Assembly: GCA_013151915.1 (NCBI GenBank)
Contig: JAADHJ010000006.1
Span: forward strand, 65,404 to 129,403
Direction: 5' to 3'
From: Deltaproteobacteria bacterium
Lineage (GTDB): Bacteria; BMS3Abin14
DNA length: 64,000 nt
Part shown: piece by piece, positions 2,432 through 62,498 of the stretch
How the letters are laid out: each line of letters begins with the position of its first letter
Position numbering within the stretch: the first letter of the stretch is position 1
The notes under the pieces: generated by a model
What the model saw: the letters and a program-made list of their open reading frames with translations, nothing else
Databases searched by the model: none
Told to the model about the DNA's origin: nothing
Translations under genes and position numbers: made by a program

Positions 2432-2998
2432 ATGAAAAAACGAACCGTCAAACCTTCAACATTCCTGTGTCCCGTACCCGTTGTCCTGGTGACCTGTCAG
2501 GACAAAGGGGGACGACCGAACATCATCACCATCGCCTGGACGGGCATCATCTGTTCCGACCCGCCCATGGTCAGCATCAGCATCAGGCCAAGCCGGTACT
2601 CCCACGGTATCATCAAGGAGACGGGCCAATTTGTGGTCAATATCCCCCCTGTGGACATTATCAGGAAAGTCGACCTTTGCGGCATCATCTCCGGAAAGGA
2701 CGCGGACAAATTTAAAGAAGCCGGCCTGACCGCGGTCCCGGCCGACAAAGTGTCCCCTCCCCTCATCGAGGAGTGTTCCATCTCCCTGGAGTGCAGCCTC
2801 ACCGAAATAGTCCCACTGGGAATTCACGACATGTTTCTGGGCGAGATCATGGCCACCCACGTAGCCGAGGATGCTTTCGATGACGGTGGAAATATCCGTA
2901 TGGGAAGAATCAATCCCCTGGCCTTTTCACCGCTGGACCATTCCTACAGGGCGCTGGGCGACGCGTTGGGGAGCTACGGGTACAGCCGGAAGGATTGA
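2432..2998 (+). CDS. flavin reductase-like (FMN-binding split-barrel) domain protein
   Basis: The N-terminal CPVPVVLVT...GRPN...IAWTG...PPMVSISIRP pattern is typical of the flavin reductase-like domain. Length is 188 aa. Confidence 0.75.
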   Translation: MKKRTVKPSTFLCPVPVVLVTCQDKGGRPNIITIAWTGIICSDPPMVSISIRPSRYSHGIIKETGQFVVNIPPVDIIRKVDLCGIISGKDADKFKEAGLTAVPADKVSPPLIEECSISLECSLTEIVPLGIHDMFLGEIMATHVAEDAFDDGGNIRMGRINPLAFSPLDHSYRALGDALGSYGYSRKD

Positions 2999-3035
2999 TG
3001 ACTTCGCGTACCTTATTGTGTTAGCATCAATTCGT

Positions 3036-3080
3036 CTCACGCCCGTTCGTCACGCCGCCGGCGTGACGAGCGGGCGTGAG
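3036..3080. terminator. perfect 22+22 bp palindrome (CTCACGCCCGTTCGTCACGCCG/CGGCGTGACGAACGGGCGTGAG) between convergent genes
   Basis: Read directly. It lies between the flavin reductase (+) and MscS (-) 3' ends. No clear U-tract on either strand. A related CCCGTTCGTCACGCC string occurs near 62375. Confidence 0.5.
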
Positions 3081-3122
3081 AAAACAGGTTTCAACGCCAG
3101 GTACTCGTTTTTACGATGATCC

Positions 3123-4981: not shown

Positions 4982-5019
4982 ACGGCTTCCTCCGGAAAAT
5001 TACCACCCACCTCATTTTT

Positions 5020-5448
5020 TGGTTCATCCTGGAAATGAGTACCTGAAGGATGACCAGATTTTGTGAAAAGCTAACTTAACACAGGGTGCACAGAGTTTCA
5101 CAGGGTAACACAGGGTTTATTCAAAACAAGTTAACGAGGTTTCGCGAAGTTTAAAACCAGGACCTTGTGGTTTTCAGACCTCCTCTGCCTGCCAAGCCGA
5201 CTTGTCAGCCATAGCTTTAGCGACGGCTGAAGCTTTACGCAAAGGCTGGTTAAACCCTCCTTTAAAACCCTGCCTGTCCTGAGCTTGCCGAAGGGCGGTA
5301 CAGCCTGCAAATCACGCCATCGGCGTGACCGTGGTAAATCAGCTCTTGACCTTTTCAGCTCCGCCCGGGATTGCCGCGCCTACGGTTTCACTCGGGCTCG
5401 CAATGACAGCAAAATAATAATAAAGGTACGCATTAACCGGATGAACCC
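5020..5448. mobile_element. MITE-like non-autonomous element, family A, copy 1 (~429 bp)
   Basis: Terminal inverted repeats GGTTCATCCTGGAAATGAGTACC (5021-5043) and GGTACGCATTAACCGGATGAACC (5425-5447). There is no ORF inside. Flanking CATTTTTT / CATGTTTT is a possible 8-bp target duplication. Homologous copies lie at 42759, 60680 and 62472. Confidence 0.7.
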
Positions 5449-5660
5449 ATGTTTTAAACATACCATCCAATTTACTTTTGGGTGATTCTGGAAGTATTGG
5501 TCATTATTCAATAGCCGTCAAGATGTACCTGTGTACCTTTTTCGGCCCTTGCCCAAAAAAGGATGATTATGTATCTTTTCTCCGTACCATCACGATAACG
5601 CATATCAGCGATCAGCATTACTCATGGCGCTGTTTGCGAAAGGACAAATTGGAGGAAATG

Positions 5661-12400: not shown

Positions 12401-13468
12401 TCAGGTTCCAGGTTTCGGCTCTTTTATCCCATTGGACTCGGGAAAAAGGTCCTCCTGTTCCCCGGCTTTGGGGGTCGGTCTTCGTCCCAAATGCCGGTAG
12501 GCCGTCTCAGTGGCCAGCCGCCCCCGTGGCGTACGCTGGAGAAATCCCCCCTGAAGCAGGAAGGGTTCGCAAATATCCTCGATCGTATCCCTCTCCTCAC
12601 CCACGGCGGCGGCAATCGTATCGATCCCCACCGGGCCGCCTCCGAACTTGTCAATAATCGCTATCAGAACCTGGCGATCGAGTTTATCGAACCCTTGTTC
12701 GTCTATCTCAAGCCGTTTCAGGGTCAGACAGGCCACATCCCGGGTAATAACGCCGTTTCCCTGGACCTGGGCGAAGTCGCGTGCTCTTCTGAGCAGCCGG
12801 TTTGCTATCCTGGGAGTAGCCCTTGAACGTCGAGCTATCTCATCGGCCGCCTCAGGAGCAAGTTCGATCCTCATGATCGTCGCGGACCTGAGGACGATTT
12901 CCGTCAACTCCGCCACTGAATAGAACTCCAGACGGAAAACAACACCAAACCGATCTCTGAAAGGCGAGGAAAGCAGGCCCATGCGGGTTGTGGCCCCAAT
13001 CAGGGTAAACCTGGGGAGATCCAGCTTTACGGTCCTTGCTCCCGGCCCCTTTCCGATAATCAGGTCGAGGGAAAAATCCTCCATGGCTGGATATAGCACC
13101 TCCTCAACCGTTCTGTTCATCCTGTGGATCTCGTCCACAAAGAAGACGCCCCTGTCTTCCAGGTTTGTCAGGATTGCCGCAAGGTCACCGGAACGCTCCA
13201 TCGCGGGTCCGGAAGTCGCCCGGATCTCCACACCAAGCTCGTTGGCCAGAATGTGTGCAAGGGTTGTCTTTCCAAGACCCGGCGGACCATAAAGAAGAAC
13301 GTGATCAAGGGCCTCTTGCCTCTCCCTCGCGGCCTCGATAAAAACACGGACGTTTTCCTTGACCGCAGATTGGCCGATATATTCCGCAAGGGTCCTGGGA
13401 CGGATATCGGCCTCGAACACCTTGTCGTCGCCGGACTGTTCCGGATCTATGAACCTTTCGTCATCCAC
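12401..13468 (-). CDS. ruvB: Holliday junction branch migration helicase RuvB
   Basis: Walker [12 protein letters not shown], RuvB-N/AAA and a winged-helix C-terminus. It lies in a ruvCAB operon. Confidence 0.95.
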
Positions 13469-13478
13469 TGTACCTCTG

Positions 13479-13595
13479 GTAGGGTCGTAAAAAGTCCATA
13501 CGTGGCTTTTTACTCAACGGGAAGCGAAAAGTGTCATTTTCTCTTCCCTCACAAATCTTCGATTTGGGCCCCCCTAAAGGGGGCGCCTTGATTCA
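13479..13595. repeat. REP/MITE-like palindromic element, family B, copy 1, filling the ruvA-ruvB spacer
   Basis: Sequence GGTCGTAAAAAGTCCATACGTGGCTTTTTACTCAACGG...CACAAATCTTCGATTTGGGCCCCCCTAAAGGGGGCGCC. It is homologous to 20064-20240, 39188-39233 and 59981-60060. Confidence 0.75.
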
Positions 13596-13600
13596 CAGTC

Positions 13601-14215
13601 TCAGGCCGAGGGTTTTCTTCCGGAAAGAACACTGAGACACTCACGTATCAGGTCGTTGAAGGAAGGCATTTCCCCCTGGTCTTTCAGAACGGACTTAAGC
13701 GCCGCTCTACCATCCTTGGCTTTGTACCCAAGGTTTGCGAGGGCGGATATAACGTCCGAGGTGATTGCATCATCGCGGCCCGGAACAGCCGCCCCCGGTG
13801 TTACCTCCACCGACTGCACCTTGTCCTTAAGTTCCAGGATAATCCTCTCGGCGGTTTTGCGGCCAACCCCCGGAACAGTGCATATCCAGCCGGCGTCCTC
13901 GCTGGATATGGCTTTGGCAAGCTCAGGCGCTTTCAGGCCTCCAAGGATGGCTAACGCGAGCCTGGGGCCAACCCCCTTGGCCTGAACCAGGAGTTTAAAC
14001 AGCTCCATTTCATCCATTTCGGCGAACCCGTACAGATGTATTGCGTCATCCCGGACCACGGTGATCGTATTGAGAGAGACATCATCCCCCTGGGGGGGGA
14101 GGGTCATCAGCGTATTGAGCGATACGAAAAGCCGATAACCCACCGTGCCGGAATCGATAACGATAGTCCCGGAAGGGTCTTTCCGCGCCAGTCGGCCTTT
14201 TACGAGAGCGATCAT
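13601..14215 (-). CDS. ruvA: Holliday junction DNA helicase RuvA
   Basis: MIALVKGRL...GYRLFVS N-terminal OB domain, HhH motifs and a C-terminal RuvB-binding domain. Confidence 0.95.
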   Translation of the reverse strand: MIALVKGRLARKDPSGTIVIDSGTVGYRLFVSLNTLMTLPPQGDDVSLNTITVVRDDAIHLYGFAEMDEMELFKLLVQAKGVGPRLALAILGGLKAPELAKAISSEDAGWICTVPGVGRKTAERIILELKDKVQSVEVTPGAAVPGRDDAITSDVISALANLGYKAKDGRAALKSVLKDQGEMPSFNDLIRECLSVLSGRKPSA

Positions 14216-19197: not shown

Positions 19198-20040
19198 CTA
19201 TCCCAAAGCCTTCTCCAGAATACCGACGACTTCATCAATAACCCAGCCGGGGGTTGAGGCGCCTGCCGTCACTCCAACCGTCGCTCCGGGGGGGATATGC
19301 AGACCCTCCAGCTCTTCGGCGCTTTCGATCTGGCAGGTCCTGGCGCATTCTTCCAGCGCCGCTTCGGTCAGCCTTGCCGTGTTGGCACTGTTTCTACCGC
19401 CCACAACGATCATGACATCCACTTTCTTTGCCATATTCCGCGCCTGTTTCCTTCTCGCGTCGGTCGCCTGACAGGTGGTTCTGAAGACCTTGATCTCCTT
19501 GCAGACCCCCACGCAGTAGGAGGCGACACGCTGCAGATTCTCCAGGGCATGTGTCGTTTGAGCGACGATGCCGACCCTGGCCTTTATGCCCGGACTTTCT
19601 TTCAGTTCCTGGACGCTTTTGGCCACCAGACTGTCAGCGGGGGCAAAACTCAGGATGGCTTTTACCTCCGGATGGTCGACCTGTCCTACGATGATGACCT
19701 GGTAATTTTCGTCGGCAAGGGTTTCCACCCGTTCCTTGAGCCTGTTGACGAAAGGACATGTGGCATCAACCACATTGAGGCCTTTCGCCCCCGCCATATC
19801 GATGACACCCTTCTGCGCACCGTGGGATCGTATAATAACGGTACCTGTCTCGATATCGTCCAGACTTACCGCCATCCGCAGCCCCATGGTCTCGAGACGC
19901 CGCACCTCCTGGGGGTTATGAATGATGGGCCCCAGGGTATAAACCGGTCCGGGACCTTTCCGGAGCGCCGAAACAGCCATTTCCACAGCCCTCTCCACCC
20001 CAAAGCAGAACCCGGCTGTTTTTGCCAGCAGAACCTTAGC
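19198..20040 (-). CDS. ispH: 4-hydroxy-3-methylbut-2-enyl diphosphate reductase
   Basis: KVLLAKTAGFCFGVERAV and NVVDATCPFV cysteine ligands. The proposed GTG start at 20040 was chosen because the upstream 16 codons of the ORF are encoded by repeat element B2. Confidence 0.8.
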   Translation of the reverse strand, partial: AKVLLAKTAGFCFGVERAVEMAVSALRKGPGPVYTLGPIIHNPQEVRRLETMGLRMAVSLDDIETGTVIIRSHGAQKGVIDMAGAKGLNVVDATCPFVNRLKERVETLADENYQVIIVGQVDHPEVKAILSFAPADSLVAKSVQELKESPGIKARVGIVAQTTHALENLQRVASYCVGVCKEIKVFRTTCQATDARRKQARNMAKKVDVMIVVGGRNSANTARLTEAALEECARTCQIESAEELEGLHIPPGATVGVTAGASTPGWVIDEVVGILEKALG

Positions 20041-20063
20041 CACCTTGATTCTTCCGTCCTTTA

Positions 20064-20240
20064 GATAGGTCGCAAAAAGTCCATCCATGGCTTTTTACTC
20101 AACGGAAAGCGAAAAATGTCATTTTCACTTTCCTCACAAATCTTCGATTTGAGCGCCCCAAAAGGGGCGCGTTGATGACTTCTTACGAAATCATCATCCT
20201 TGATAGGTCGTAAAAAGCCATGGATGGACTTTTTACGAAG
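20064..20240. repeat. REP/MITE-like palindromic element, family B, copy 2 (full length, both palindromic ends)
   Basis: Begins GATAGGTCGCAAAAAGTCCATCCATGGCTTTTTAC and ends GATAGGTCGTAAAAAGCCATGGATGGACTTTTTACGAAG. It has an internal GCGCCCCAAAAGGGGCGC hairpin. It overlaps the annotated ispH 5' end and the cmk stop. Confidence 0.75.
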
Positions 20241-20904
20241 TCTCCAATTCTTTAACCCTTCTGAAAATCAGATCAACGACATCCTCCGGGGACATGTCGG
20301 TCGTGTCTACAATGATGGCATCATCCGCACGCCGAAGGGGGGAATCGGAGCGGGTGGAATCGTTGTGGTCGCGCTCCTGCATATCATCTTCCACCTTATC
20401 CAACGGATCCTTTTCCCCCTGTCCACTGAGTTCAAGCCAACGTCTTTTCGCCCTCTCTCCGACGGCTGCGTCGAGGTAAAATTTGGCCCGGGTTTCAGGG
20501 AAGACGACCGTGCCCATATCCCTTCCCTCAGCCACCAGGCCGCCCCGGCTCCCTATTTCACGCTGCAGGCGCACCATGTGGCGCCTGACGGAACTGACCC
20601 CGGACACGGCGGAGGACGCGCGGCTCATCTCGGGGGTTCGAATAAGATCCGAAACATCCTCCCCGTCCAGGGTCACCCTCATTCCGCATTCGGTGTTGAC
20701 GAAATTGATGTGAATTCTGCCGCAGAGAGCGTCGAGAGCAATCTCATCTTCCAGATCCAGGCCGTCCCTGACCGCGGCCAGCGCCACCGCCCGGTACATC
20801 GCCCCCGTATCAAGGTGGACATACCCCAAGCGCTTCGCCAATTCCCCGGCCACGGTGCTCTTGCCCGCCCCGGATGGTCCGTCAATGGCGACAACCTGCT
20901 TCAT
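20233..20904 (-). CDS. cmk: cytidylate kinase
   Basis: MKQVVAIDGPSGAGKSTVAGELAKRLGYVHLDTGAMYR. Confidence 0.95.
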   Translation of the reverse strand: MKQVVAIDGPSGAGKSTVAGELAKRLGYVHLDTGAMYRAVALAAVRDGLDLEDEIALDALCGRIHINFVNTECGMRVTLDGEDVSDLIRTPEMSRASSAVSGVSSVRRHMVRLQREIGSRGGLVAEGRDMGTVVFPETRAKFYLDAAVGERAKRRWLELSGQGEKDPLDKVEDDMQERDHNDSTRSDSPLRRADDAIIVDTTDMSPEDVVDLIFRRVKELETS

Positions 20905-24127: not shown

Positions 24128-25291
24128 CTAACCCTCATTTCTTTCCATAATTTCCGTTAATTTTTCCAGAAAATATTTGTTTTCATCGGGGTTGCCGATG
24201 GTCACTCGAAGGTGGCCGGGAAGACCGTATCCCGCCATGGGACGGACGATAACGCCATTTTTCAGCAGTGCCTGATAGACTGTCTCCCCCTTTGGGTCCA
24301 TAAGATCGACAAGCAGAAAGTTACCGGCCGAAGGCGCCGCCGAAAGTCCAAGGGAACGGACACCGTCCGAAACCCGCTCCATCTCAATCCTGTTCAACCT
24401 GACGGCCTCCCTGATAAATTCCTGGTCCCCAAGGGCAGCCGCAGCTGCCGCCTGTCCCAAGCTGTTGACATTGAAGGGTTGGCGAACCCTGTTAAGAAGG
24501 TCTGCAAGCTCCTCGGGCATCACCGCATATCCAACCCTGAGCCCGGCCAGACCATAGGCCTTGGAGAAGGTCCTCGTCACAACCAATGACCGGCCCTGTT
24601 TGACAAGTTCGATCCCGTCGGGATAGTCCGGCCGATCCATGGCATATTCGAAATAGGCCTCGTCAAGGACCGGCACCACATCCTCCGGCAATGCGTCGAG
24701 AAACCTCTCCACATCGGGTCGGGCTACATAGGAACCGGTGGGGTTGTTGGGGTTGGCGACAAAGACAATTCGGGTATCCGGGGTAACCGCCTCGGCCATG
24801 GCCCCAAGATCGTGCGCCATGGCGGTGTCAAGAGGCACCTCAACACCCCTGCCCCCGTGGGCAAGGGTACAAAGTCGGTAGACGATAAACGCAGGCCAGG
24901 CGTACACCGTTTCAGCACCTTCACAAAGGAGGAGCTGGGCAAGCAGTTCGAGAATTTCGTTGGACCCGTTTCCCAGAACAATCATCTCACCGGGCACACC
25001 ATGTTTTTCAGCCAACAGCCCCTTCAGATGGTAGGCGCTTCCGTCTGGATAACGATTGATGCCGTTCAATGCCTCCTGAACCGCCTTTCTCGCCAAGGGA
25101 GACATCCCCATGGGGTTCTCGTTGGAGGCCAGCTTGATTATCCTCTCCAGGCCCATCTCCCTTAAAAGCTCTTCAATGGGTTTTCCCGTTTGGTAGGGAA
25201 CCAGATTTTCCACCGATCCGTATGCCGTGCGGTATTTGAGCTGTTTCATATTTTTAAGTCCCATGTTTAAATAACAAGGTTCAACGTTCAA
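24128..25291 (-). CDS. hisC: histidinol-phosphate/aromatic aminotransferase (class II PLP)
   Basis: HisC-family signature FSKAYGLAGLRVGYAV. The first ~9 codons of the ORF are encoded by the GTTCAAN tandem array, so the true start may be a downstream Met (~25249). Confidence 0.85.
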   Translation of the reverse strand: MNVEPCYLNMGLKNMKQLKYRTAYGSVENLVPYQTGKPIEELLREMGLERIIKLASNENPMGMSPLARKAVQEALNGINRYPDGSAYHLKGLLAEKHGVPGEMIVLGNGSNEILELLAQLLLCEGAETVYAWPAFIVYRLCTLAHGGRGVEVPLDTAMAHDLGAMAEAVTPDTRIVFVANPNNPTGSYVARPDVERFLDALPEDVVPVLDEAYFEYAMDRPDYPDGIELVKQGRSLVVTRTFSKAYGLAGLRVGYAVMPEELADLLNRVRQPFNVNSLGQAAAAAALGDQEFIREAVRLNRIEMERVSDGVRSLGLSAAPSAGNFLLVDLMDPKGETVYQALLKNGVIVRPMAGYGLPGHLRVTIGNPDENKYFLEKLTEIMERNEG

Positions 25292-25335
25292 TGTTCAAGG
25301 TTCAACGTTCAATGTTCAACGTTCAAGGTTGAACG
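25278..25335. repeat. heptamer tandem array GTTCAAN x8
   Basis: Reads gGTTCAAC GTTCAAT GTTCAAG GTTCAAC GTTCAAT GTTCAAC GTTCAAG GTTGAAC, in the pheA-hisC junction. Confidence 0.85.
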
Positions 25336-32210: not shown

Positions 32211-32306
32211 ATCCAGTGGAGTCCAGGGTCCAGAGTTCAGTGTCCAGAGTCCAGTGTCCAGGGTCCAGTGTCCAGGGTCCAGAGTTCAGAGTCCAGAGTT
32301 CAGAGG
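32211..32306. repeat. heptamer tandem array GTCCAGN/GTTCAGN x~13
   Basis: Thirteen consecutive 7-bp units. The array starts 8 nt upstream of the guaA start codon and therefore lies in the guaB-guaA spacer / guaA leader. Confidence 0.85.
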
Positions 32307-38936: not shown

Positions 38937-39187
38937 AATCGTCTCCTCCTGTTATGGTTGCGGAAAATGTAACCTTTTCCAACACTTGGAATCAGGTTTA
39001 ATTTTAGCACAGAAACTGAGGATCAAGGGCGGATTTTCCAACTCCGGGAAAAGAATAACAGCTCAGGAATATCAGATATACACTTAACGGTCAATTCAAA
39101 AACCCGTTCTATTTTCATCGGTCGCAGATCATGTATCCGATGCAACAGGGGTCTTTCGTGGGAAACACGATTTCGCACCATCAAACA

Positions 39188-39233
39188 TGATAGGGTCGCA
39201 AAAAGTCCATTGATGACTTTTTGCGAAGTCATC
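39188..39233. repeat. REP-like element family B, minimal copy (palindrome only)
   Basis: GATAGGGTCGCAAAAAGTCCATTGATGACTTTTTGCGAAGTCATC, flanked by direct CATCAAACATG repeats. Confidence 0.6.
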
Positions 39234-39246
39234 AAACATGCTGGGT

Positions 39247-40359
39247 TTAGAAACGGCACACCGGTTGTGATGTGCCGTATTTGGTCATGACGATCTGCCA
39301 CACCTGCATGCTGCGGGCCCGGAAGGCCCCGGCGAAAGAAAGAAGGAAATACTCCCACATCCGCTTGAACTTTTCATCGTACTTGTCTTCAAACTTCGGC
39401 CATGCGCTCTGGAGGTCGGCGTTCCATATCATGAGGGTCCTGTCGTAATGGGGGCCCAGGTTGTGCATGTCCTCGATGACGAACAACCCTTCAACCGAAC
39501 GGCCGATCTGGGCCAGGCTCGGCACCATTCCGTTCGGGAAGATGTACTTGTCGGTCCAGGGGTCGCAGTCCACGTCGGATTCGTTGCCCCCGATGGTATG
39601 CAGAAGGAAGATGCCTCCGTCCTTCAGGTTGTGATGGACCGTTTTCATGAAGGTACGGTAGTTCTTGAAGCCGACGTGCTCGAACATGCCCACGGAGACT
39701 ATCTTGTCGAATGTACCCCGAATATCGCGATAATCACATTCCAGGAACTGCACCGGAAGGTTCCTGCAGAACTCGCGGGCATAGTTCAATTGCTCCCGGG
39801 AGATGTTCACCGCGGTTACGCTGCAGCCGAAGCGCTCGGCGATGTACTTGGCAAACCCGCCCCAACCACAGCCGATATCAAGAACGCGGTCCTCAGGACC
39901 GAGGTCCATCTTGCAGCTGATGAGGTCCATCTTCGCCAGTTGGGCCTGATGAAGGTCCTCCGTACCGCTGAAAAAGGCACAGCTGTACTGGTTGTAGGGA
40001 TCAAGAAAAGACAGGAACAGGTCGTTACCGGTGTTGTAGTGCCGGTCCGCGATGATCCCGGCGCGCCCCCTGCTCTGGAGGTTAAGCAACCGGGCCGTGA
40101 CGGCGGGCCAGAGTATCCTGAGGTTTCCTCTGACCCTGGTGTTGAGCCGGGCTCTCAGTATCCGGAAAAAAAACTCATCCAATCGTGCGCAATTCCACCA
40201 ACCCTCCATGTAGGCCTCCCCGAGGCCAAGGTTTTTCTCACGGAGCATCCGCGCGTACAGCCTGTCGTCCCTGACCTGGATATCCCACGGGTTCGGGCCG
40301 TCAATGGCCACACCCGCCATGGCGAGCAGTTCCTCTACGATCTGACGTTGTTTCGACAT
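39247..40359 (-). CDS. cfa: cyclopropane-fatty-acyl-phospholipid synthase
   Basis: SAM-binding LDIGCGWGG and CFA family motifs. Length is 370 aa. Confidence 0.9.
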   Translation of the reverse strand: MSKQRQIVEELLAMAGVAIDGPNPWDIQVRDDRLYARMLREKNLGLGEAYMEGWWNCARLDEFFFRILRARLNTRVRGNLRILWPAVTARLLNLQSRGRAGIIADRHYNTGNDLFLSFLDPYNQYSCAFFSGTEDLHQAQLAKMDLISCKMDLGPEDRVLDIGCGWGGFAKYIAERFGCSVTAVNISREQLNYAREFCRNLPVQFLECDYRDIRGTFDKIVSVGMFEHVGFKNYRTFMKTVHHNLKDGGIFLLHTIGGNESDVDCDPWTDKYIFPNGMVPSLAQIGRSVEGLFVIEDMHNLGPHYDRTLMIWNADLQSAWPKFEDKYDEKFKRMWEYFLLSFAGAFRARSMQVWQIVMTKYGTSQPVCRF

Positions 40360-42730: not shown

Positions 42731-42758
42731 GGCCGGCTAATTTATGGCCCTCAAATTT

Positions 42759-42924
42759 GGGTTCATCCTGGAAATGAGTACCTGGATGTGGACCGGATTG
42801 TGGAAAGAGCCAACTGACCGCAAAGTTAACGAATCCGCCCGGGATTGCCGCGTCGCTCTCGTCTCCCTCGATGCCCCTCGCAATGACAGCAAAATAATAA
42901 AGGTACGCATTAGCCGGACGAACC
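42759..42924. mobile_element. MITE-like element family A, copy 2 (internally deleted, 166 bp)
   Basis: Ends GGGTTCATCCTGGAAATGAGTACC ... GGTACGCATTAGCCGGACGAACC. It shares the internal CGCCCGGGATTGCCGCG and CTCGCAATGACAGCAAAATAATAAAGG with copy 1. Confidence 0.7.
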
Positions 42925-43071
42925 GATTTCACCAATATCCTATATCATGGGAAAAATCAATACATCGAATAGAAAAATACGATACATGTGGTGATTTCGC
43001 TGCACCAAAATGGGATCAGGACGTATCGGGGTTTTACCTGGAAATTGAGGAAAGAAAATCCGGATCGACTA

Positions 43072-48888: not shown

Positions 48889-49956
48889 TCAATCCGCTGT
48901 CTTCCTGAGATTCAGAAGGTGCCGCCTTGCAGCCAAAGCTGCCTTCGCACCTTCTCCCGAAGCTATGATAATCCTCTTTCCGAAAGCGTCGGTAACGTCC
49001 CCGGCCGCAAAGAGCCCGGGACAGGACGTTGAGCAATCGGGGCCGATGGTGATCTCCCCGTTTTCGTTGAGTTCGACAATATCCGAAACCAGATGGGAGT
49101 TAGGCTGCAAGCCGATGGCAATGAATACGCCCCCGGCCGGCAGGTATAACGTCTCCTCCCCGGCTATCTTTCTGATCGTCAAACCGGACAATGCACTCTC
49201 GCCCTTAAAATCAACTACTTTGTATCCTTCGTACATGTTGAGGTTCTCGAATCTGCATATACGAGCCACAAGCGACGGATCAGCACTTAGTTTGCAGTCG
49301 GAGATGAGATTTATATTTTTGACGACGGTTCGCACTTTCTCAACGATCTGCACGGCCGAATTACCCCCCCCGATGATAGCGACATCTTCCCCTGTCACAA
49401 AGGAAAAATCCTGGATATTGCCGTAAAAGAGTCCTTTTCTCTGGAACTCCTCCTCACCGGGAACATCCAGTTTTCTCCTCGTCATACCGGTTGAAATGAT
49501 CAGGGTTTTTGCAAAATAGATCTTAAGCTCCGATGTAGTAACGTTGAAACCACCCTGGACGGTTTCGATCTTATCCGCTTCAGCGATCAGGTGGTCTATA
49601 TAGTGTGAGTGGAGCAACTGGCGCTGAAACTTTTCAGTCAGTTCAGGTCCCGTGATGAAGTCGAAACCCATGTAGTTCTCTACTTTCGTGCTGTCTATGG
49701 CCTGACCGCCGAGATCTTTAGCCAGCAGGAAGGCATCAATTTTAAGCGTGTCCGCATAGACAGCCGCCGTGAGCCCGGCGGGTCCGCCGCCGATAATAAT
49801 GAGATCGTAGGAAGTGCGGGGGAGTTCACATACCCTCTCCGCCAGGAATTTGTCCCTGCAGCCTTCGGAGCAGAAATAAAAGATCTTGTTGTCACATTCT
49901 GTTGTAAGAGCAGTTCTTTCGTCGATATCCATCTTGCATATGGGATCTTTTTTCAC
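48889..49956 (-). CDS. YHS/TRASH-domain fused to thioredoxin-reductase-like NAD(P)/FAD oxidoreductase
   Basis: The N-terminus has ICKMDIDERTALTTECDNKIFYFCSEGCRDKF, the same module as at the CopA N-terminus. This is followed by LIIIGGGPAGLTAAVY and the TrxR-like C-terminal GD motif FAAGDV. No CxxC redox pair is present. Starts at GTG. Confidence 0.65.
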   Translation of the reverse strand: MKKDPICKMDIDERTALTTECDNKIFYFCSEGCRDKFLAERVCELPRTSYDLIIIGGGPAGLTAAVYADTLKIDAFLLAKDLGGQAIDSTKVENYMGFDFITGPELTEKFQRQLLHSHYIDHLIAEADKIETVQGGFNVTTSELKIYFAKTLIISTGMTRRKLDVPGEEEFQRKGLFYGNIQDFSFVTGEDVAIIGGGNSAVQIVEKVRTVVKNINLISDCKLSADPSLVARICRFENLNMYEGYKVVDFKGESALSGLTIRKIAGEETLYLPAGGVFIAIGLQPNSHLVSDIVELNENGEITIGPDCSTSCPGLFAAGDVTDAFGKRIIIASGEGAKAALAARRHLLNLRKTAD

Positions 49957-49996
49957 TTACTCCCCTTTCGATTTGCGCGCCCCTCCGTGGGCGCGT

Positions 49997-51118
49997 TCAT
50001 AATGTTTTGGTGGGACGTTCGCATCTGCACCAGATGCACGTGCAGTTCAGGTGGTTGCAGCTCTCGTCCTTGACCCTGTTGACATAGTTTTTCCTGGCTT
50101 TGGGAAGAAGCAGGTGCTTTATACGGGAGCGGTTGTAATGGTGCATCAGGAATGTGTTGGAATCACCTTTGGCGAGCTTCCTCGTCAGGTACCTGTAACC
50201 CGCATGGCCGAGCTTCTCATACAGGAACCTGTTTATGAGAGAGGTCTCGAGCATGGGTGCCAGTTCATTTTTCCACAGGGCGTCGTAGCTGGTTTTCTCT
50301 ATGAGGCTCCTGGCGGCAAGACAGCCTGATGCGATCGAATACCTCATCCCGAACCCCCACAGACAATCCTGAAACCCAGCTGTCTCACCGATATAAAGCT
50401 TGCCGTTGCGAACCTGCGTGTCCCGCAGGAAAAAGTTACCGAAGCCCCCGAACTTCCTCTCGTTTCTGACGTCGGCATCCATTTTCGTGTTAAAAAAACG
50501 CATCATGTTATCAAAGTACTCCTCGCTCCTTCGATAATTTCGGTAAAGGACAGTGGCCATGGTCCCATAGCCCCCGTTTACAAGAAGGTAAGCGTAACCT
50601 TTGGGAGCGATATCATCATCAAGGACCACGACCGCCGTGTCTTCCATGGATGTGTCAAAGGTGATGCCCATGGCGATCACATCGGCCCCCTTCGGGCCGA
50701 TTCCCACTATGGCCGGCCCCGAAAGGTGATCCATGCCGTGTTCGAACAGAATCTCTGTGCCCAGCGCCTGGGCCTGTTCCTTCAGGCCCGTGTCGAGGGT
50801 GCCGGACATGGGTCCCCTTTTAACGAGGTAGAAACTGGGTTTTTCCGACTTTATGACAACAGGCTCCATCCCACGGGAATGGATGACTCCTCCAAAATAG
50901 GGTTCGCAGAGAAAGTTTATTTCGACACCCATATTTTTCAGCGTTTCGGTGACGTCGACATTCGAGCTCCAGTTTTCGAGCCCCTGAAAATCACCGCTCA
51001 ACCTGTGGCCGACATCCGGGGACTTCTCAAAAATCGTCACCGGGATACCGTGACGGCGCAGGACGATGGCGGCGACGAGTCCCGCTGGACCAGCGCCGAT
51101 TATTTTCACCGTGTTCAT
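49997..51118 (-). CDS. FAD-dependent oxidoreductase (geranylgeranyl-reductase-like fold) with Cys-rich C-terminal tail
   Basis: IIGAGPAGLVAAIVL dinucleotide motif. C-terminus CNHLNCTCIWCRCERP. Good RBS GGGAGGA. Confidence 0.6.
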   Translation of the reverse strand: MNTVKIIGAGPAGLVAAIVLRRHGIPVTIFEKSPDVGHRLSGDFQGLENWSSNVDVTETLKNMGVEINFLCEPYFGGVIHSRGMEPVVIKSEKPSFYLVKRGPMSGTLDTGLKEQAQALGTEILFEHGMDHLSGPAIVGIGPKGADVIAMGITFDTSMEDTAVVVLDDDIAPKGYAYLLVNGGYGTMATVLYRNYRRSEEYFDNMMRFFNTKMDADVRNERKFGGFGNFFLRDTQVRNGKLYIGETAGFQDCLWGFGMRYSIASGCLAARSLIEKTSYDALWKNELAPMLETSLINRFLYEKLGHAGYRYLTRKLAKGDSNTFLMHHYNRSRIKHLLLPKARKNYVNRVKDESCNHLNCTCIWCRCERPTKTL

Positions 51119-51589: not shown

Positions 51590-54319
51590 TCATATCCTGC
51601 GCCTGTACCTGCGCATCAGTAGTGAGTTTGTAACGACGGACACGGAGCTGAAGGCCATAGCCGCTCCGGCGATGATCGGACTGAGCAGAAACCCTGTGAA
51701 CGGATACAGGATGCCGGCGGCAATGGGGAGACCGAGGGCGTTGTATATAAAGGCCCAGAAAAGGTTCTGTTTGATCTTGCGCATGGCGAAGCTGGACAGA
51801 TCCATGGCCATGACCACATCCCGGATGTCGTCCTTGATAAGCACGATGTCGCCTGATTCTATAGCCACATCCGTGCCGCTGCCGATGGCGATCCCGATGT
51901 CCGCCTGGATCAGCGCGGGGGCGTCGTTGATGCCGTCCCCAACCATGGCGACCTTGAGACCATCGTCCTGGAGTTTTTTCACCTCGGCTGATTTGTCCTG
52001 GGGAAGCACCTCGCTAAGCACCCTGTTTATCCCCACCTGGGCGGCGATGGCCTTAGCGGTCCTTCTATTGTCGCCGGTGATCATTACCACCTCCTTACCC
52101 ATCTTTTGCAGAGCCCCGACAGCCGCCGCAGAGTGTTCCTTAAGGGTGTCGGCCACCGCCAGGATTCCGGCAACATCGTTGTCAACACCGACGATCATCG
52201 ACGTTTTGCCCTGCTCCTCAAGCCCGGTCATCGCCTCGTCTGCGTCCTTCAGGTCCAGACCCGCCTCGGTAAAGTAGGCCCGGTTTCCGATGACAACTTT
52301 CCGGCTGTTCACAGTGCCCTCGACACCTTTCCCGGTAATGGAGATAAAGTCCTCAGGCGGCGTCAACTCCAGACCCTTGGCAAGAGCGCCGTTCACGATC
52401 GCCTCTCCCAGAGGGTGTTCCGAGTTCTTCTCGACGGAAGCGGCAAGTTGAAGCAAAAGGTCGGAGTCCCAGTCCCCGAAGGTCCCCACATCGGTTAACT
52501 CGGGTTCCCCTTTGGTCAATGTGCCTGTCTTGTCGAACACCACCGTGTCTATTTTATGTGCTATCTGAAGCGCCTCCGCGCTCTTGATGAGGACCCCGTT
52601 CTTGGCACCCAACCCGGTGCCCACCATGACGGCGGTGGGGGTTGCCAGCCCCAGGGCGCAGGGACAGGCAATGATGAGCACAGCGATGAACACGGTCAGG
52701 GCGAAGATGAAGCTCTGGCCGGCCAGCATCCAGATGCCGAAAGCGACCAGGGCGATTACTACCACACCCGGAACGAAATAAGCCGAAATGAGATCCGCCA
52801 ACGCCTGGATAGGGGCCTTGGAGCCCTGGGCCTCTTCCACCAGGTTGATGATCTGAGCCAGGGCCGTGTCCTTGCCGACCTTGGTGGCCCTGAATCTGAA
52901 GGAGCCGGTCCTGTTCATGGTGGCCCCGACGACCTCGTCGCCCACGGTTTTTTCCACCGGGATACTCTCACCCGTGAGCATCGACTCGTCCACGGCCGAA
53001 TACCCGTCAATGATGATTCCGTCCACGGGGATCTTCTGTCCCGGTTTGACCAACACTTCATCGCCCGTGTGCACCTCCTCAACCGGGATCTCCATCTCCC
53101 GGCCGTCTCGCACGACGAGGGCGGTTTTGGCCTGGAGCCCCATCAGCGACCTGATCGCTTCGGAGGTCTTTCCCTTGGCTATGGCCTCAAGCCACTTACC
53201 CATCAGTATGAAGACAATAAGAAGCCCGGCGACCTCAAAATAAAGATTCTCTGCCGAGTAGCCGGGCTTCCCGGACCAGATGGCGACCAGTACCGCCGTA
53301 CTGTAGATCCAGGCGGCGCCGGTACCAAGGGCCACCAGTGTGTCCATGGTTGCCATCCGGGTCTTGATAACCGAGAGAATACCCCTCGTGTAGAACTGGT
53401 AGTTGACGAACAGTATGGGAGTGGCCAGGAGGAACTGCAGGATGGACTCCCACCTGGCCGGCATGTGGGGCACCGGTATGCCCACCAGGGGCCCCATGGT
53501 GAGGGTGACGAGAGGCAGGCCCAGGACAGCCGAGAAGATGAACTTGAGCTTGAGGATCTTGATCTCCCGGTCCCTCGCCTCCTTCTCCCGGTCCAGGGTC
53601 TCTTCCGTCTCCTCCAGGGGTGTGTATCCCGCGTCCCGTATCGTCTGGAAGATCTCTTCCCTGCTGATAACGGCAGGATCGAAGTCGATCTTGGCCCTCT
53701 CGTTGATGAAAAGTTCCTTGGATAGGATCCCCCGCAAGCTGTTCAGGACGCCCTGAACCGTTCCAAGGCAGTGGGGGTTGTCCATTCCTACGACCTTCAG
53801 GTCAAGGTGCCCGGCGCGCGCCTCTCTTATATGGGGTGTATAGCCTGCGTCCACGATGGCCTTTTCAAGGTCCTGGTAAGAGACGGCGGCGGGGTCGAAT
53901 CGGACCATCGCCGATTCGGCCGCGAAGTTGACGTTTGCTTCCGACATGCCGTCAAGCTTCGACAGAGCCTTTTCGATGGTCGACGCGCACGATGCGCAGT
54001 GCATGCCGGTTATTCCCATGGTGACCGTCTTTTCGGCGGGTGCCTCCGCATCACTTTTCTCCGGCAAAGGTATTTCACGGGCTTCAACTGAGACCCCCGC
54101 CTCGAGTTCCGGAGCACCATTCTCTTCCTCTGGACCCTGGACTCCCGACTCCGGACTTCCGGCTCCGGAATCCGGAGTCAGGAATTTGTCCCTGCACCCG
54201 GGGCTGCAGAAGTACCAGGTCTTACCGTCCTTCTCCCCGGAAAGGGCTGTGCTCTCATCCACCTCCATGCCGCATATCGGATCAACCACCATCTCTGAAC
54301 CCTTCTTTTCCGGTTTCAT
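51590..54319 (-). CDS. copA: Cu(I)-translocating P1B-1 ATPase with N-terminal YHS/TRASH plus HMA domains
   Basis: N-terminal [35 protein letters not shown] motif GMHCASCAS, plus a second degenerate HMA. CPC motif ([12 protein letters not shown]), [15 protein letters not shown]. Confidence 0.9.
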
Positions 54320-59980: not shown

Positions 59981-60060
59981 ATTCAGCGTTGATGACTTCG
60001 CAAAAAGTCCATCCATGGCTTTTTACTCCACGGAATAACGAAAAATGTCATTTTCACTTA
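59981..60060. repeat. REP/MITE-like element family B, copy 4 (truncated)
   Basis: GATGACTTCGCAAAAAGTCCATCCATGGCTTTTTACTCCACGGAATAACGAAAAATGTCATTTTCAC. It provides the last codons and the stop of the gene at 60054-60452. Confidence 0.7.
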
Positions 60061-60452
60061 CCGGACTCAGGGGAACTTTCCGCGTGCCACTGAGCCGCCG
60101 TGAATTTCCTGAGATCTTCAAAGTACCGTGAATTGGGATCAGCGCCCGCAGTGTGCCCTTTCATGACATCGAACCCGTGCCGGGAGAGCACCCAACCAAC
60201 CGCATGGATGGCCTCGTGGCGGGAAAGGCCGTCAGCCACCAGGCGCCGGAGCGTCCCAGCCACGGGAATCTCGTCGCCCATTGCCGTCTGGGTTTCCACC
60301 ATCGCATGGATCTGGGCATGAAGAAGAACATTCGGCAGGTTCGCCTCGCCGGCCTCGCAGTACTGAAGCACCGCGTTCACCCGCTCGGGCTCATCAGCTT
60401 TAAGCCACATCTCTGATTCAGGTTCGATCTCAGGATCGTAGTCGTGGATCAT
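60054..60452 (-). CDS. hypothetical protein (132 aa)
   Basis: An ATG at 60452 follows GGAGGAAAGGGGAG. No recognisable motif. Confidence 0.45.
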   Translation of the reverse strand: MIHDYDPEIEPESEMWLKADEPERVNAVLQYCEAGEANLPNVLLHAQIHAMVETQTAMGDEIPVAGTLRRLVADGLSRHEAIHAVGWVLSRHGFDVMKGHTAGADPNSRYFEDLRKFTAAQWHAESSPESGK

Positions 60453-60679
60453 TTCCACTCCCCTTTCCTCCTTGGTTCCTATTCGAATCGCCCCGGCAAA
60501 CTCAGCCCCCCCGGCTCTGCCGTGGGACCCAAGGAGTTTGACCATACCGGGCGTAGATGAAAGCCTCCCGTTTGTGAACCGCTCAAAGCTTTCAGGAGAG
60601 GAGACTTTCGTTTAACGATGTAAGAAGTTTAAGCCATACGGTATGGGACTGCAAGTATCATAATTGTTTGGGTTCATCC

Positions 60680-60881
60680 GGTTAATGCGTACCTTTATTA
60701 TTTTGCTGTCATTGCGAGGAGCATCGAGTAAGACGAGAGTGACGCGGCAATCTCATGCGGAGCTGAAAAGATCGTCACGGTGCCCTTCGGTCGCCCACGG
60801 GATCGCTTCGCATAGTTTCAGCTCGCGATGACGAATGGTGGGATATGGTCTTCATCCGGGTACGCATTTCCAGGATGACCC
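60680..60881. mobile_element. MITE-like element family A, copy 3 (inverted orientation, 202 bp)
   Basis: Ends GGGTTCATCCGGTTAATGCGTACC ... GGTACGCATTTCCAGGATGACCC. Flanks ATTGTTT / TATTCTTT. Confidence 0.7.
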
Positions 60882-61019
60882 TATTCTTTCACCACCTTTT
60901 GAACTTGACCTTCCCGACCCGGTTCCCCTAAAATACCCTTAGCTACTTATTGACGAAGGGAAACCGGCGGTTTATCTACACTCAGATTTGCCGAAAAACG
61001 ATAGTAAGGAGGTAGAGAA

Positions 61020-62359: not shown

Positions 62360-62494
62360 CCACCCGTTCGTCACGCCTGCGGCAAGCTGTTCCTTAACCA
62401 AAGATTTCAGGTGTCCTCCGTATCCTTCCATAACGTGCCTTGTAGCGGTGAGCCGCTCCTTAACTCAATAAGGTACGCATTAACCGGAGGAACC
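62360..62494. mobile_element. MITE family A partial copy / solo terminal repeat
   Basis: GGTACGCATTAACCGGAGGAACC at 62472-62494 with upstream CCCGTTCGTCACGCCTGCGG. No matching left TIR. Confidence 0.5.
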
Positions 62495-62498
62495 AATT

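Follow-up and report, generated by a model that had tools for sequence, protein, structure and literature searches.

Copies of family B in the window

The window analysed here is a stretch of 64,000 nt of a deltaproteobacterial contig (JAADHJ010000006.1), along which all feature positions are counted. It harbours dispersed copies of a short palindromic repeat, referred to below as family B. Pfam matches gave the gene orders ruvC-ruvA-ruvB, with copy 1 between ruvA and ruvB, and aroA-cmk-ispH, with copy 2 between cmk and ispH, all on the minus strand. The host appears to belong to an uncultured lineage, since its RuvB is only ~67% identical to those of named Geobacter and Desulfuromonas; one protein, from a JGI metagenome contig of 150,597 bp, is 100% identical to it and the next best match reaches 81%. 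Looking up the exact RuvB and RuvA sequences of the window returned no record.

The original prediction had proposed four copies of a palindromic family, described as resembling both repetitive extragenic palindromes (REP) and miniature inverted-repeat transposable elements (MITE). The 23-mer AAAAAGTCCATCCATGGCTTTTT, searched with up to three mismatches, matched the window five times, at 13489(+), 20074(+), 20212(-), 39200(+) and 60002(+) with 2, 0, 0, 3 and 0 mismatches, respectively, while no match occurred in 100 dinucleotide-preserving shuffles of the window (chance expectation 0). We then searched with nhmmer profiles and with a covariance model for which 78 copies of the window's lineage had been collected outside the window. 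Six pieces were found, one of them (49953-49997) beyond those previously listed, and the existence of a dispersed palindrome-rich family was thus borne out:

13478-13600, plus strand: copy 1, short-form unit in the ruvA-ruvB spacer (covariance model 102.3 bits, nhmmer E=1e-34)
20064-20195, plus strand: copy 2a, complete short-form unit GAT...ATC of 132 nt with five hairpins (129.6 bits, model positions 1-153 covered)
20202-20245, minus strand: copy 2b, minimal unit in which two terminal repeats enclose an inverted hairpin 1, with an exact 23-mer as inverted repeat (model match 20139-20245, minus strand, 35.7 bits)
39183-39239, plus strand: copy 3, 45-nt minimal element (39189-39233) plus the flanking 6-bp AAACAT duplication (model match 39189-39316, 31.1 bits, of which only 39189-39233 is element)
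49953-49997, plus strand: fragment with the 3' half of hairpin 2, a short hairpin 3 and hairpin 4 (TTTTCACTT..CTTTCGATTTG CGCGCCCCTCCGTGGGCGCG; nhmmer E=1.1e-4, profile positions 112-153)
59991-60059, plus strand: copy 4, right-type terminal repeat GATGACTTCGC, then hairpins 1 and 2, truncated after ATTTTCACTT (model match 59991-60119, 41.6 bits, of which only ~59991-60059 is element)

Copies 1 and 2 have 100 nt in common at 90% identity, and copy 4 is homologous to both over its first ~65 nt in the nhmmer profile search. In copy 1, hairpin 3 is cut to 6 bp and hairpin 5 is truncated to CTTGATTCACAGTC; copy 3 consists of a 22-nt left terminal repeat fused to the 23-nt hairpin 5. The GC-rich hairpin GCGCCCCAAAAGGGGCGC, which the longer copies were said to add, is exact in copy 2 only, copy 1 carrying the homologous variant GGGCCCCCCTAAAGGGGGCGCC. 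The fragment at 49953-49997 also carries a homologous variant.

Anatomy and distribution of the family

Scanning species-representative genomes with the 23-mer and metagenome contigs with a left-end pattern returned at least 120 loci each. The metagenome-assembled genome (MAG) CSMAG_1715 alone holds dozens of 23-mer loci among the matches listed, and matches are often located at contig ends. Genome bins carrying the 23-mer are labelled Deltaproteobacteria/Thermodesulfobacteriota, Nitrospirae, 'Pseudomonadota', Leptospirales, Zetaproteobacteria and others. Copies are ~85-95% alike.

In the window's lineage the canonical unit extends from GAT to ATC over 153 nt and forms a chain of five hairpins, in the order hairpin 1, hairpin 2, TCACAAAT, hairpin 3, ATTTGG, hairpin 4 and hairpin 5. 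Its length hardly varies: among 81 distinct full copies, 51 measure 153 nt and 76 measure 152-154 nt. The stems comprise 12 bp in hairpin 2, at least 12 bp in hairpin 3 and 7 bp in the GC-rich hairpin 4. The outermost ends read GATAGGGTCG... on the left and ...CGACCCTATC on the right, and each end folds back on itself, the left one as hairpin 1 (the 23-mer) and the right one as hairpin 5 (the right terminal repeat). The terminal inverted repeats are GATAGGGTCG(C/T)AAAAAGTC and GATGACTTCGCAAGAAGTC; when the left GATAGGGTCGCAAAAAGTC is compared with the right GATGACTTCGCAAGAAGTC (reverse complement), ~13 of 19 positions are identical. A sister lineage shares the 23-mer and the hairpin order of this first main lineage and has ends CAGG...CCTG, with terminal inverted repeats CAGGATGTTGAAAAAG and CAGGGTGTTGAAAAAC. 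The window copies are of a short form in which hairpin 3 is reduced to 6 bp. They derive from the 153-nt unit as short forms of 132 nt, truncated copies or minimal versions of 45 nt.

In sediment metagenome contigs a 120-nt sub-unit (hairpins 1-3 and half of hairpin 4) is repeated head to tail, at the following positions:

L142: 31/151/271
L211: 139/259 and 6998/7118
L235: 12236/12356

The family therefore expands as tandem arrays too, and not by dispersed insertion alone. A sister-lineage copy was also noticed on a 1,027-nt contig (L109) binned as Candidatus Azambacteria, of the candidate phyla radiation (CPR), which could reflect either horizontal spread or a binning error.

A known RNA family was ruled out as a candidate: Rfam gave no match in the window at gathering thresholds, and at E<=10 only chance miRNA-like hairpin matches far below threshold. 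A literature search with the sequence strings of the family found no published description of it. As far as this search goes, family B is undescribed; the kind of element to which it probably belongs, the MITE, is well known.

Fixed-length target-site duplications

Direct repeats abutting GAT...ATC showed a sharp length mode at exactly 6 bp, in 16 of 97 copies, with 2 more slightly longer. Permutation of the flanks gave the chance levels: identical flanking hexamers were observed in 19 of 105 copies (3.7 expected), and hexamers at most one base apart in 44 of 105 (17 expected). The duplicated hexamers were AACTTT (10 copies), AATCTT, AAGATT, AAACTT, AACGAT, AATATT and AACATT, with AACTTT (A-A-C/Y-N-T-T) as the target consensus. 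Many copies seem to be bordered by TTGAT...ATCAA, an appearance that arises from the TT and AA of the duplicated hexamer. These dinucleotides belong to the flank and not to the element, because copies inserted at other hexamers differ (AAACAT for copy 3, ATTTCT for L110).

Copy 3 is the sole window copy showing a duplication, AAACAT at 39183-39188 and 39234-39239. The direct repeats predicted around it are present as the 11-nt CATCAAACATG at 39179-39189 and 39230-39240. Only AAACAT is target-site duplication, however, as the CATC is element end and the G is its first base. The hexamer left of copy 4, AGCGTT, fits the target consensus.

The sister lineage was found to duplicate a shorter target. 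Direct repeats of 4 bp, CTAN, flank 15 of 23 of its copies (5.4 expected by permutation, P<5e-5), and in 17 of 23 the two flanks agree in the variable fourth base; the repeats read CTAA, CTAT, CTAG, CTGA and TTAT.

Insertions at gene junctions

The genes and open reading frames (ORFs) that adjoin the copies are the following:

12401-13468, minus strand: ruvB, GTG start at 13468 (Pfam RuvB_N/AAA_lid_4/RuvB_C)
13601-14215, minus strand: ruvA, stop TGA at 13603-13601 (Pfam RuvA_N/HHH_5/RuvA_C)
19198-20043, minus strand: ispH, predicted GTG start at 20043-20041 (BLASTP against the relative, Pfam LYTB)
20044-20063, plus strand: junction sequence CTTGATTCTTCCGTCCTTTA, absent from the relative
20233-20904, minus strand: cmk, stop TAA at 20235-20233 inside copy 2b (Pfam Cytidylate_kin)
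60054-60452, minus strand: 132-aa ORF without Pfam match, 163 aa from the farthest ATG, with its stop in the copy 4 remnant

In order to look at the same junctions without the element, we compared the window with related genomes. A syntenic relative (L121-L125) aligns to the window at ~70% DNA identity, and the genome bins L044, L056 and L118 carry the same repeat family at ~70% DNA identity to the window. No element separates cmk from ispH in L121, where the two overlap by 8 nt (GTGGGTAA), nor ruvA from ruvB in L044, where the overlap reads TAATG. The corresponding junctions of the window measure 189 nt at cmk-ispH (20044-20232) and 132 nt at ruvA-ruvB, and nearly all of this is element, although with relatives only ~70% identical at the DNA level the exact insertion boundaries are unreadable from these two empty sites. 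Since both gene pairs overlap in relatives, this comparison shows copies 1 and 2 to be insertions that split coupled genes. Overlapping contigs revealed no presence/absence polymorphism of family B.

An 83-nt indel inside the der (GTPase) region separates L122 (9819/9820) from L121 (15252-15334), two otherwise identical contigs of the syntenic relative, and shifts the gene calls; unrelated to family B, it could be a strain polymorphism or arise from assembly. An ORF cluster had suggested a family copy beside ruvB in the MAG PFL40 (L012). This was rejected, since the clustered ORFs are spurious and derive from the element, and no ruvB was detected there by tblastn.

The claim of an exact placement at gene junctions, with donated coding ends, was substantiated by the cmk stop, the end of the 132-aa ORF and the spurious ispH start. 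Copy 1 fills the 132-nt ruvA-ruvB spacer, in agreement with the Pfam gene calls and the stop and start positions: the ruvA stop directly abuts its degenerate right end, and the ruvB ribosome-binding site AGAGG (13472-13476) adjoins its left end. The GTG of ruvB is homologous to the ATG start of relative L044 (residue 1 aligned by tblastn). Copy 2, as foreseen, supplies the stop codon of cmk, which is located in the inverted 23-mer; the last two codons and stop (ACT TCG TAA) are read from copy 2b, the relative ending instead in ...AGSG*.

On the other side of copy 2, the longest ispH ORF opens at ATG 20088-20086, within the CCATGG of a hairpin loop, and starts with MDGLFATYLKDGRIK (Met-Asp-Gly...). 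The alignment with the relative's IspH begins at residue 16 of this ORF by BLASTP, and the Pfam LYTB match at residue 19. Because IspH aligns with the relative only from residue 16, the true start is GTG 20043-20041, from which the protein reads MAKVLLAK..., and the 15 upstream codons are artefactual, read from junction sequence and element. A spurious extension and a GTG start had both been anticipated, with a length of 16 codons and a position at 20040 that need correction. On the minus strand, the junction 20044-20063 provides a ribosome-binding site, GGACGGAAG, ahead of this GTG. Since its CCTTGATTC is found again both at the right end of copy 1 and to the right of the element in L070, the junction sequence is probably element-derived.

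The two remaining copies lie between other genes. Copy 3 separates a periplasmic-binding-protein gene from a cyclopropane-fatty-acid-synthase-like (CMAS-type methyltransferase) gene according to Pfam, and copy 4 lies between two convergent genes. Copy 4 does end the 132-aa ORF, by TGA 60056-60054 in the remnant of hairpin 2; of the last codons that it was also thought to supply, a single one is contributed (AAG TGA).

Such donated stops recur in other genomes. Among 99 copies, 26 ORFs of at least 100 codons reach an element boundary, and 12 of these 26 end in a TGA that straddles it. The straddling stops begin 1-2 nt before the first base of the element (8 of 13 ORFs from the left, 4 of 13 from the right): joined to a hexamer ending in T, the element ends read T|GA TAG (left) or T|GA TGA (right, other strand). 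Family copies also occupy the pgk-tpi junction in two other genome bins. ORFs running through the elements cluster as a "protein family" (window 13124-13591 (+); L013, L023, L036, L042, L059, L065 and others), and gene callers are likely to annotate such spurious ORFs as conserved hypothetical proteins.

Secondary structure and strand asymmetry

The minus-strand RNA of copy 1 is predicted to fold into four hairpins (z=-3.9), and the RNA of copy 2 into a 29-bp outer stem around four hairpins (-106.6 kcal/mol, z=-11.2), the outer stem being formed by copy 2b (20212-20234) paired with hairpin 1 of copy 2a (20074-20096). No promoter-like or terminator-like sites were found within copies 1 and 2, so that the operons must read through them. 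A role as terminator or promoter carrier was ruled out on the same absence of consensus sites.

The covariance model of the window's lineage aligned end to end with sister-lineage copies (60-75 bits). In this cross-lineage alignment 93.9% of the cells were paired and 40 of 49 pairs showed double changes; 344 cells were doubly changed, compared to 94 in shuffles and at most 68 when partners were slid, counts that come from an alignment fitted to the model, with hairpin 1 fixed by the search patterns, and from palindromic DNA, both arms of which can be altered by DNA-level processes. Conservation at the sequence level is confined to the 23-nt hairpin 1 and the TCACAAAT...ATTTGG frame, and the other stems are kept only as structure, via double changes. 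Within these alignments the order of the five hairpins appears clearly conserved while three of the stems have been replaced.

Mismatches in the stems were asymmetric between strands. In an alignment of 78 copies (A2, loci L012-L247), 131 cells held A.C and 40 held G.T, at 18 and 5 stem positions, respectively; the complementary strand therefore keeps wobble pairing. We compared this bias with the direction of the flanking genes. The orientation of the copies showed no significant preference (21 anti, 14 same, p=0.31), and an earlier excess of 16 over 6, seen in a smaller set, vanished. The A.C:G.T bias was alike in copies co-oriented with flanking genes (42:11) and in anti-oriented ones (60:23). 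The suggestion that the elements act as mRNA stabilisers or processing sites gains no support from these numbers, because selection on host mRNA predicts a reversal of the bias between orientations. The strand asymmetry of the stem mismatches is independent of the direction in which the host genes are transcribed.

Origin and role of family B

Taken together, family B is short, non-coding (the ORFs through the copies being spurious), multi-copy and uniform in length. Both lineages have terminal inverted repeats and target-site duplications whose length is constant within the lineage (6 bp in that of the window, 4 bp in its sister), and related genomes (L121, L044) have empty sites. On this basis, family B is probably a MITE, a DNA transposon that is non-autonomous and moved in trans. 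The fixed-length duplications and inverted repeats indicate a cut-and-paste MITE, and led us to set aside models based on REP/RAYT or IS200/IS605. A transposase acting in trans, most likely of DDE type given the signature of staggered cuts, would insert the element at A-A-C/Y-N-T-T hexamers with duplication of 6 bp. Copies would survive only where insertion is tolerated, exactly between genes. There they split overlapping pairs such as ruvA/ruvB and cmk/ispH, give the upstream gene a new stop through the element ends, leave a ribosome-binding site for the downstream gene and create a spurious in-frame ATG. Having no promoter or terminator consensus, they must be transcribed through, yielding a stable multi-hairpin RNA inside operon mRNAs.

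Several observations weigh against this scheme. No target-site duplication is recognisable around window copies 1, 2a and 2b, and in the whole set perfect duplications occur in only ~18% of copies despite the ~85-95% likeness of the copies. The right flank often reads AACCTT whatever the left flank reads. The two lineages share hairpin 1, yet duplicate 6 bp and 4 bp, and therefore cannot use the same enzyme unchanged; the invariance of hairpin 1 is itself partly built into the sampling, as the loci were gathered with patterns containing it. The strand-asymmetric stem mismatches are not predicted for a purely double-stranded cut-and-paste element. Finally, a search of ~1.6 Mb of DNA flanking 245 loci (2-14 kb around each match) uncovered neither an autonomous copy nor a transposase gene that recurs. 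Clustering of recurrent ORFs across all loci returned housekeeping families and orthologues only, and a tblastn search of the loci with E. coli IS5 InsH detected no IS5-like transposase. Where two ends with matching hexamers lay 0.45-5 kb apart, they belonged to separate MITEs on either side of host genes (gap-pgk-tpi, gidA). Plasmid and viral collections gave no family copy, with no match or two chance matches. MITEs are commonly without an identifiable parent element.

The bias in stem mismatches would be explained by a single-strand mechanism, as in REP/BIME/REPIN-type palindromes spread by RAYT, a HUH tyrosine transposase acting on single-stranded hairpins. Hairpin 1 is, in this respect, an imperfect palindrome of 23-35 nt in which a bulged T is invariant, some palindromes stand alone (L101, L047), the inverted doublet of copy 2 recalls a REPIN and the mosaic modules a BIME, and the lack of a transposase near the copies is as expected with a single RAYT gene per genome. 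The duplications of fixed length in both lineages, the terminal inverted repeats and the uniform 153-nt unit nevertheless make such an origin very improbable; moreover, a GTAG-type head is absent, GATAGGGTCG standing upstream of the palindrome. Of the two labels first given to the family, MITE is therefore retained and REP is not. An element derived from IS200/IS605, with the hairpins as left- and right-end binding sites, was suggested by TTGAT, which precedes AGGGTCG in 13 of the first 17 canonical copies, and by the subterminal hairpins: ISDra2 inserts 3' of TTGAT (PMC2806898). This candidate was dropped once the TT of TTGAT proved to be part of the duplicated hexamer. CATGAT (copy 3) or CTGAT (L110) stands in its place elsewhere, and the opposite end carries the hexamer again. 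The right end mirrors the left as an inverted repeat, and the two end hairpins are unlike each other, so that we regard this origin as extremely improbable.

The copies could also be maintained by the host as cis-acting RNA elements, whose chain of hairpins would stabilise the upstream mRNA or direct its processing, for example if RNase III cleaved the modelled 29-bp stem of copy 2; this role is compatible with a transposon origin. The copies lie inside operons and are necessarily transcribed, their predicted RNA structures are very stable, their stems are maintained across lineages by double changes, and REP, Correia and ERIC elements have documented effects of this kind. Such a role is unlikely in view of the non-significant orientation preference and of a mismatch bias that is the same in both orientations where a reversal was predicted. 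It also fits poorly with window copies truncated at different modules and with relatives that have no element at the same junctions. A further proposal, which we rate as quite doubtful, is that the five-hairpin cassette would be a functional single-stranded module (RNA or single-stranded DNA) of the element's own life cycle and not inert filler. It is drawn from the conserved hairpin 1 and frame, the stems conserved as structure only, the tolerance of wobble on one strand (131 versus 40) and a cassette common to lineages with different termini and duplication lengths, in bins labelled as at least five phyla. If true, an element-borne structured transcript or single-strand intermediate would recruit or regulate the transposase, a trait of MITE biology not described so far.

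Implications of the family

Whatever moves it, the family matters for annotation: it breaks assemblies (many matches at contig ends), yields spurious ORFs and false gene starts, and alters real C-termini. Its recognition improves the annotation of poorly known sediment and groundwater lineages. The window offers two clean cases in which a mobile element split gene pairs overlapping in relatives (ruvA/ruvB, cmk/ispH) without destroying the operon. The stop codons given by the element's own ends are material for studying how compact genomes tolerate insertions. Two smaller points of possible interest are the strand asymmetry and the hairpin cassette shared across lineages with different duplications.

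Other repeats in the neighbourhood

The window contains further repeats. Tandem heptanucleotide repeats are located at 2160-2189, 2354-2393, 25275-25335, 32219-32305 and 54139-54173; the arrays include AGTCCAG x4.3 with its inverse GACTCTG x5.6 165 nt away, CAACGTT x8.7 and GAGTCCA x12.4. They resemble the short heptamer tandem repeats known from cyanobacteria, and similar arrays stand beside family B copies in L035, L075, L121 (9700-9790) and L246. A second dispersed repeat family, with the motif CTCGCAATGACAGCAAAATAATAA, occurs at 5010-5450, 42749-42927, 60667-60884 and 62463-62497, in direct and inverted orientation, with shared stretches of up to 91 nt at 90% identity. In relative L121 the spacer between ruvA and ruvB is occupied by a related TGTCATCGCGAG...CTCGCAATGACA element, so the same junction holds different repeats in different lineages. 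A near-perfect palindrome at 3035-3081 has 23-nt arms, TCTCACGCCCGTTCGTCACGCCG/CGGCGTGACGAGCGGGCGTGAGA, that are 96% complementary with 1 nt between them, and a half-site like hairpin 5 (GGATTGATGACTTCGC) lies just upstream, at 2993-3007.

Comparison with known systems

The ends of family B are not known to match any named insertion sequence. REP, BIME and REPIN elements of gamma-proteobacteria are likewise high-copy extragenic palindromes, mosaic, placed between operon genes and found in tandem or inverted arrangements. REPs, however, have neither target duplication nor terminal inverted repeats and possess a GTAG head and a RAYT, family B being the opposite on the first three counts; its likeness to REP/BIME is one of mosaic organisation only. 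BOX and RUP of Streptococcus pneumoniae and ERIC/IRU of enterobacteria resemble it as modular or strongly folded short repeats of intergenic transcribed regions, and differ in sequences, targets, module structure and host phyla. RUP is a MITE whose mobilisation is attributed to an IS630-type transposase.

The sister lineage, with its CTAA, CTAT, CTAG, CTGA and TTAT duplications, is close to the YTAR-type 4-bp MITEs of the IS5 group; its CTAN-like target is of the type associated with the IS5 group. The window's lineage departs from these MITEs by duplicating 6 bp at AACTTT-like sites and by the absence of an InsH match.

The Correia elements of Neisseria (CREE/NEMIS) are MITEs that measure ~100-160 bp, carry terminal inverted repeats and duplicate a short target. 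They are present in hundreds of copies, often in transcription units next to gene ends, form a long hairpin in the mRNA and may donate stop codons or coding ends. They, too, have no known parent transposase; RNase III cleavage and promoter activity have been shown. Their sequence is unrelated to that of family B, and they duplicate TA and form one long stem, whereas family B duplicates 6 bp at AAYNTT and forms five separate hairpins. Family B is most closely paralleled by Correia elements and, in the sister lineage, by MITEs with an IS5-type 4-bp target.

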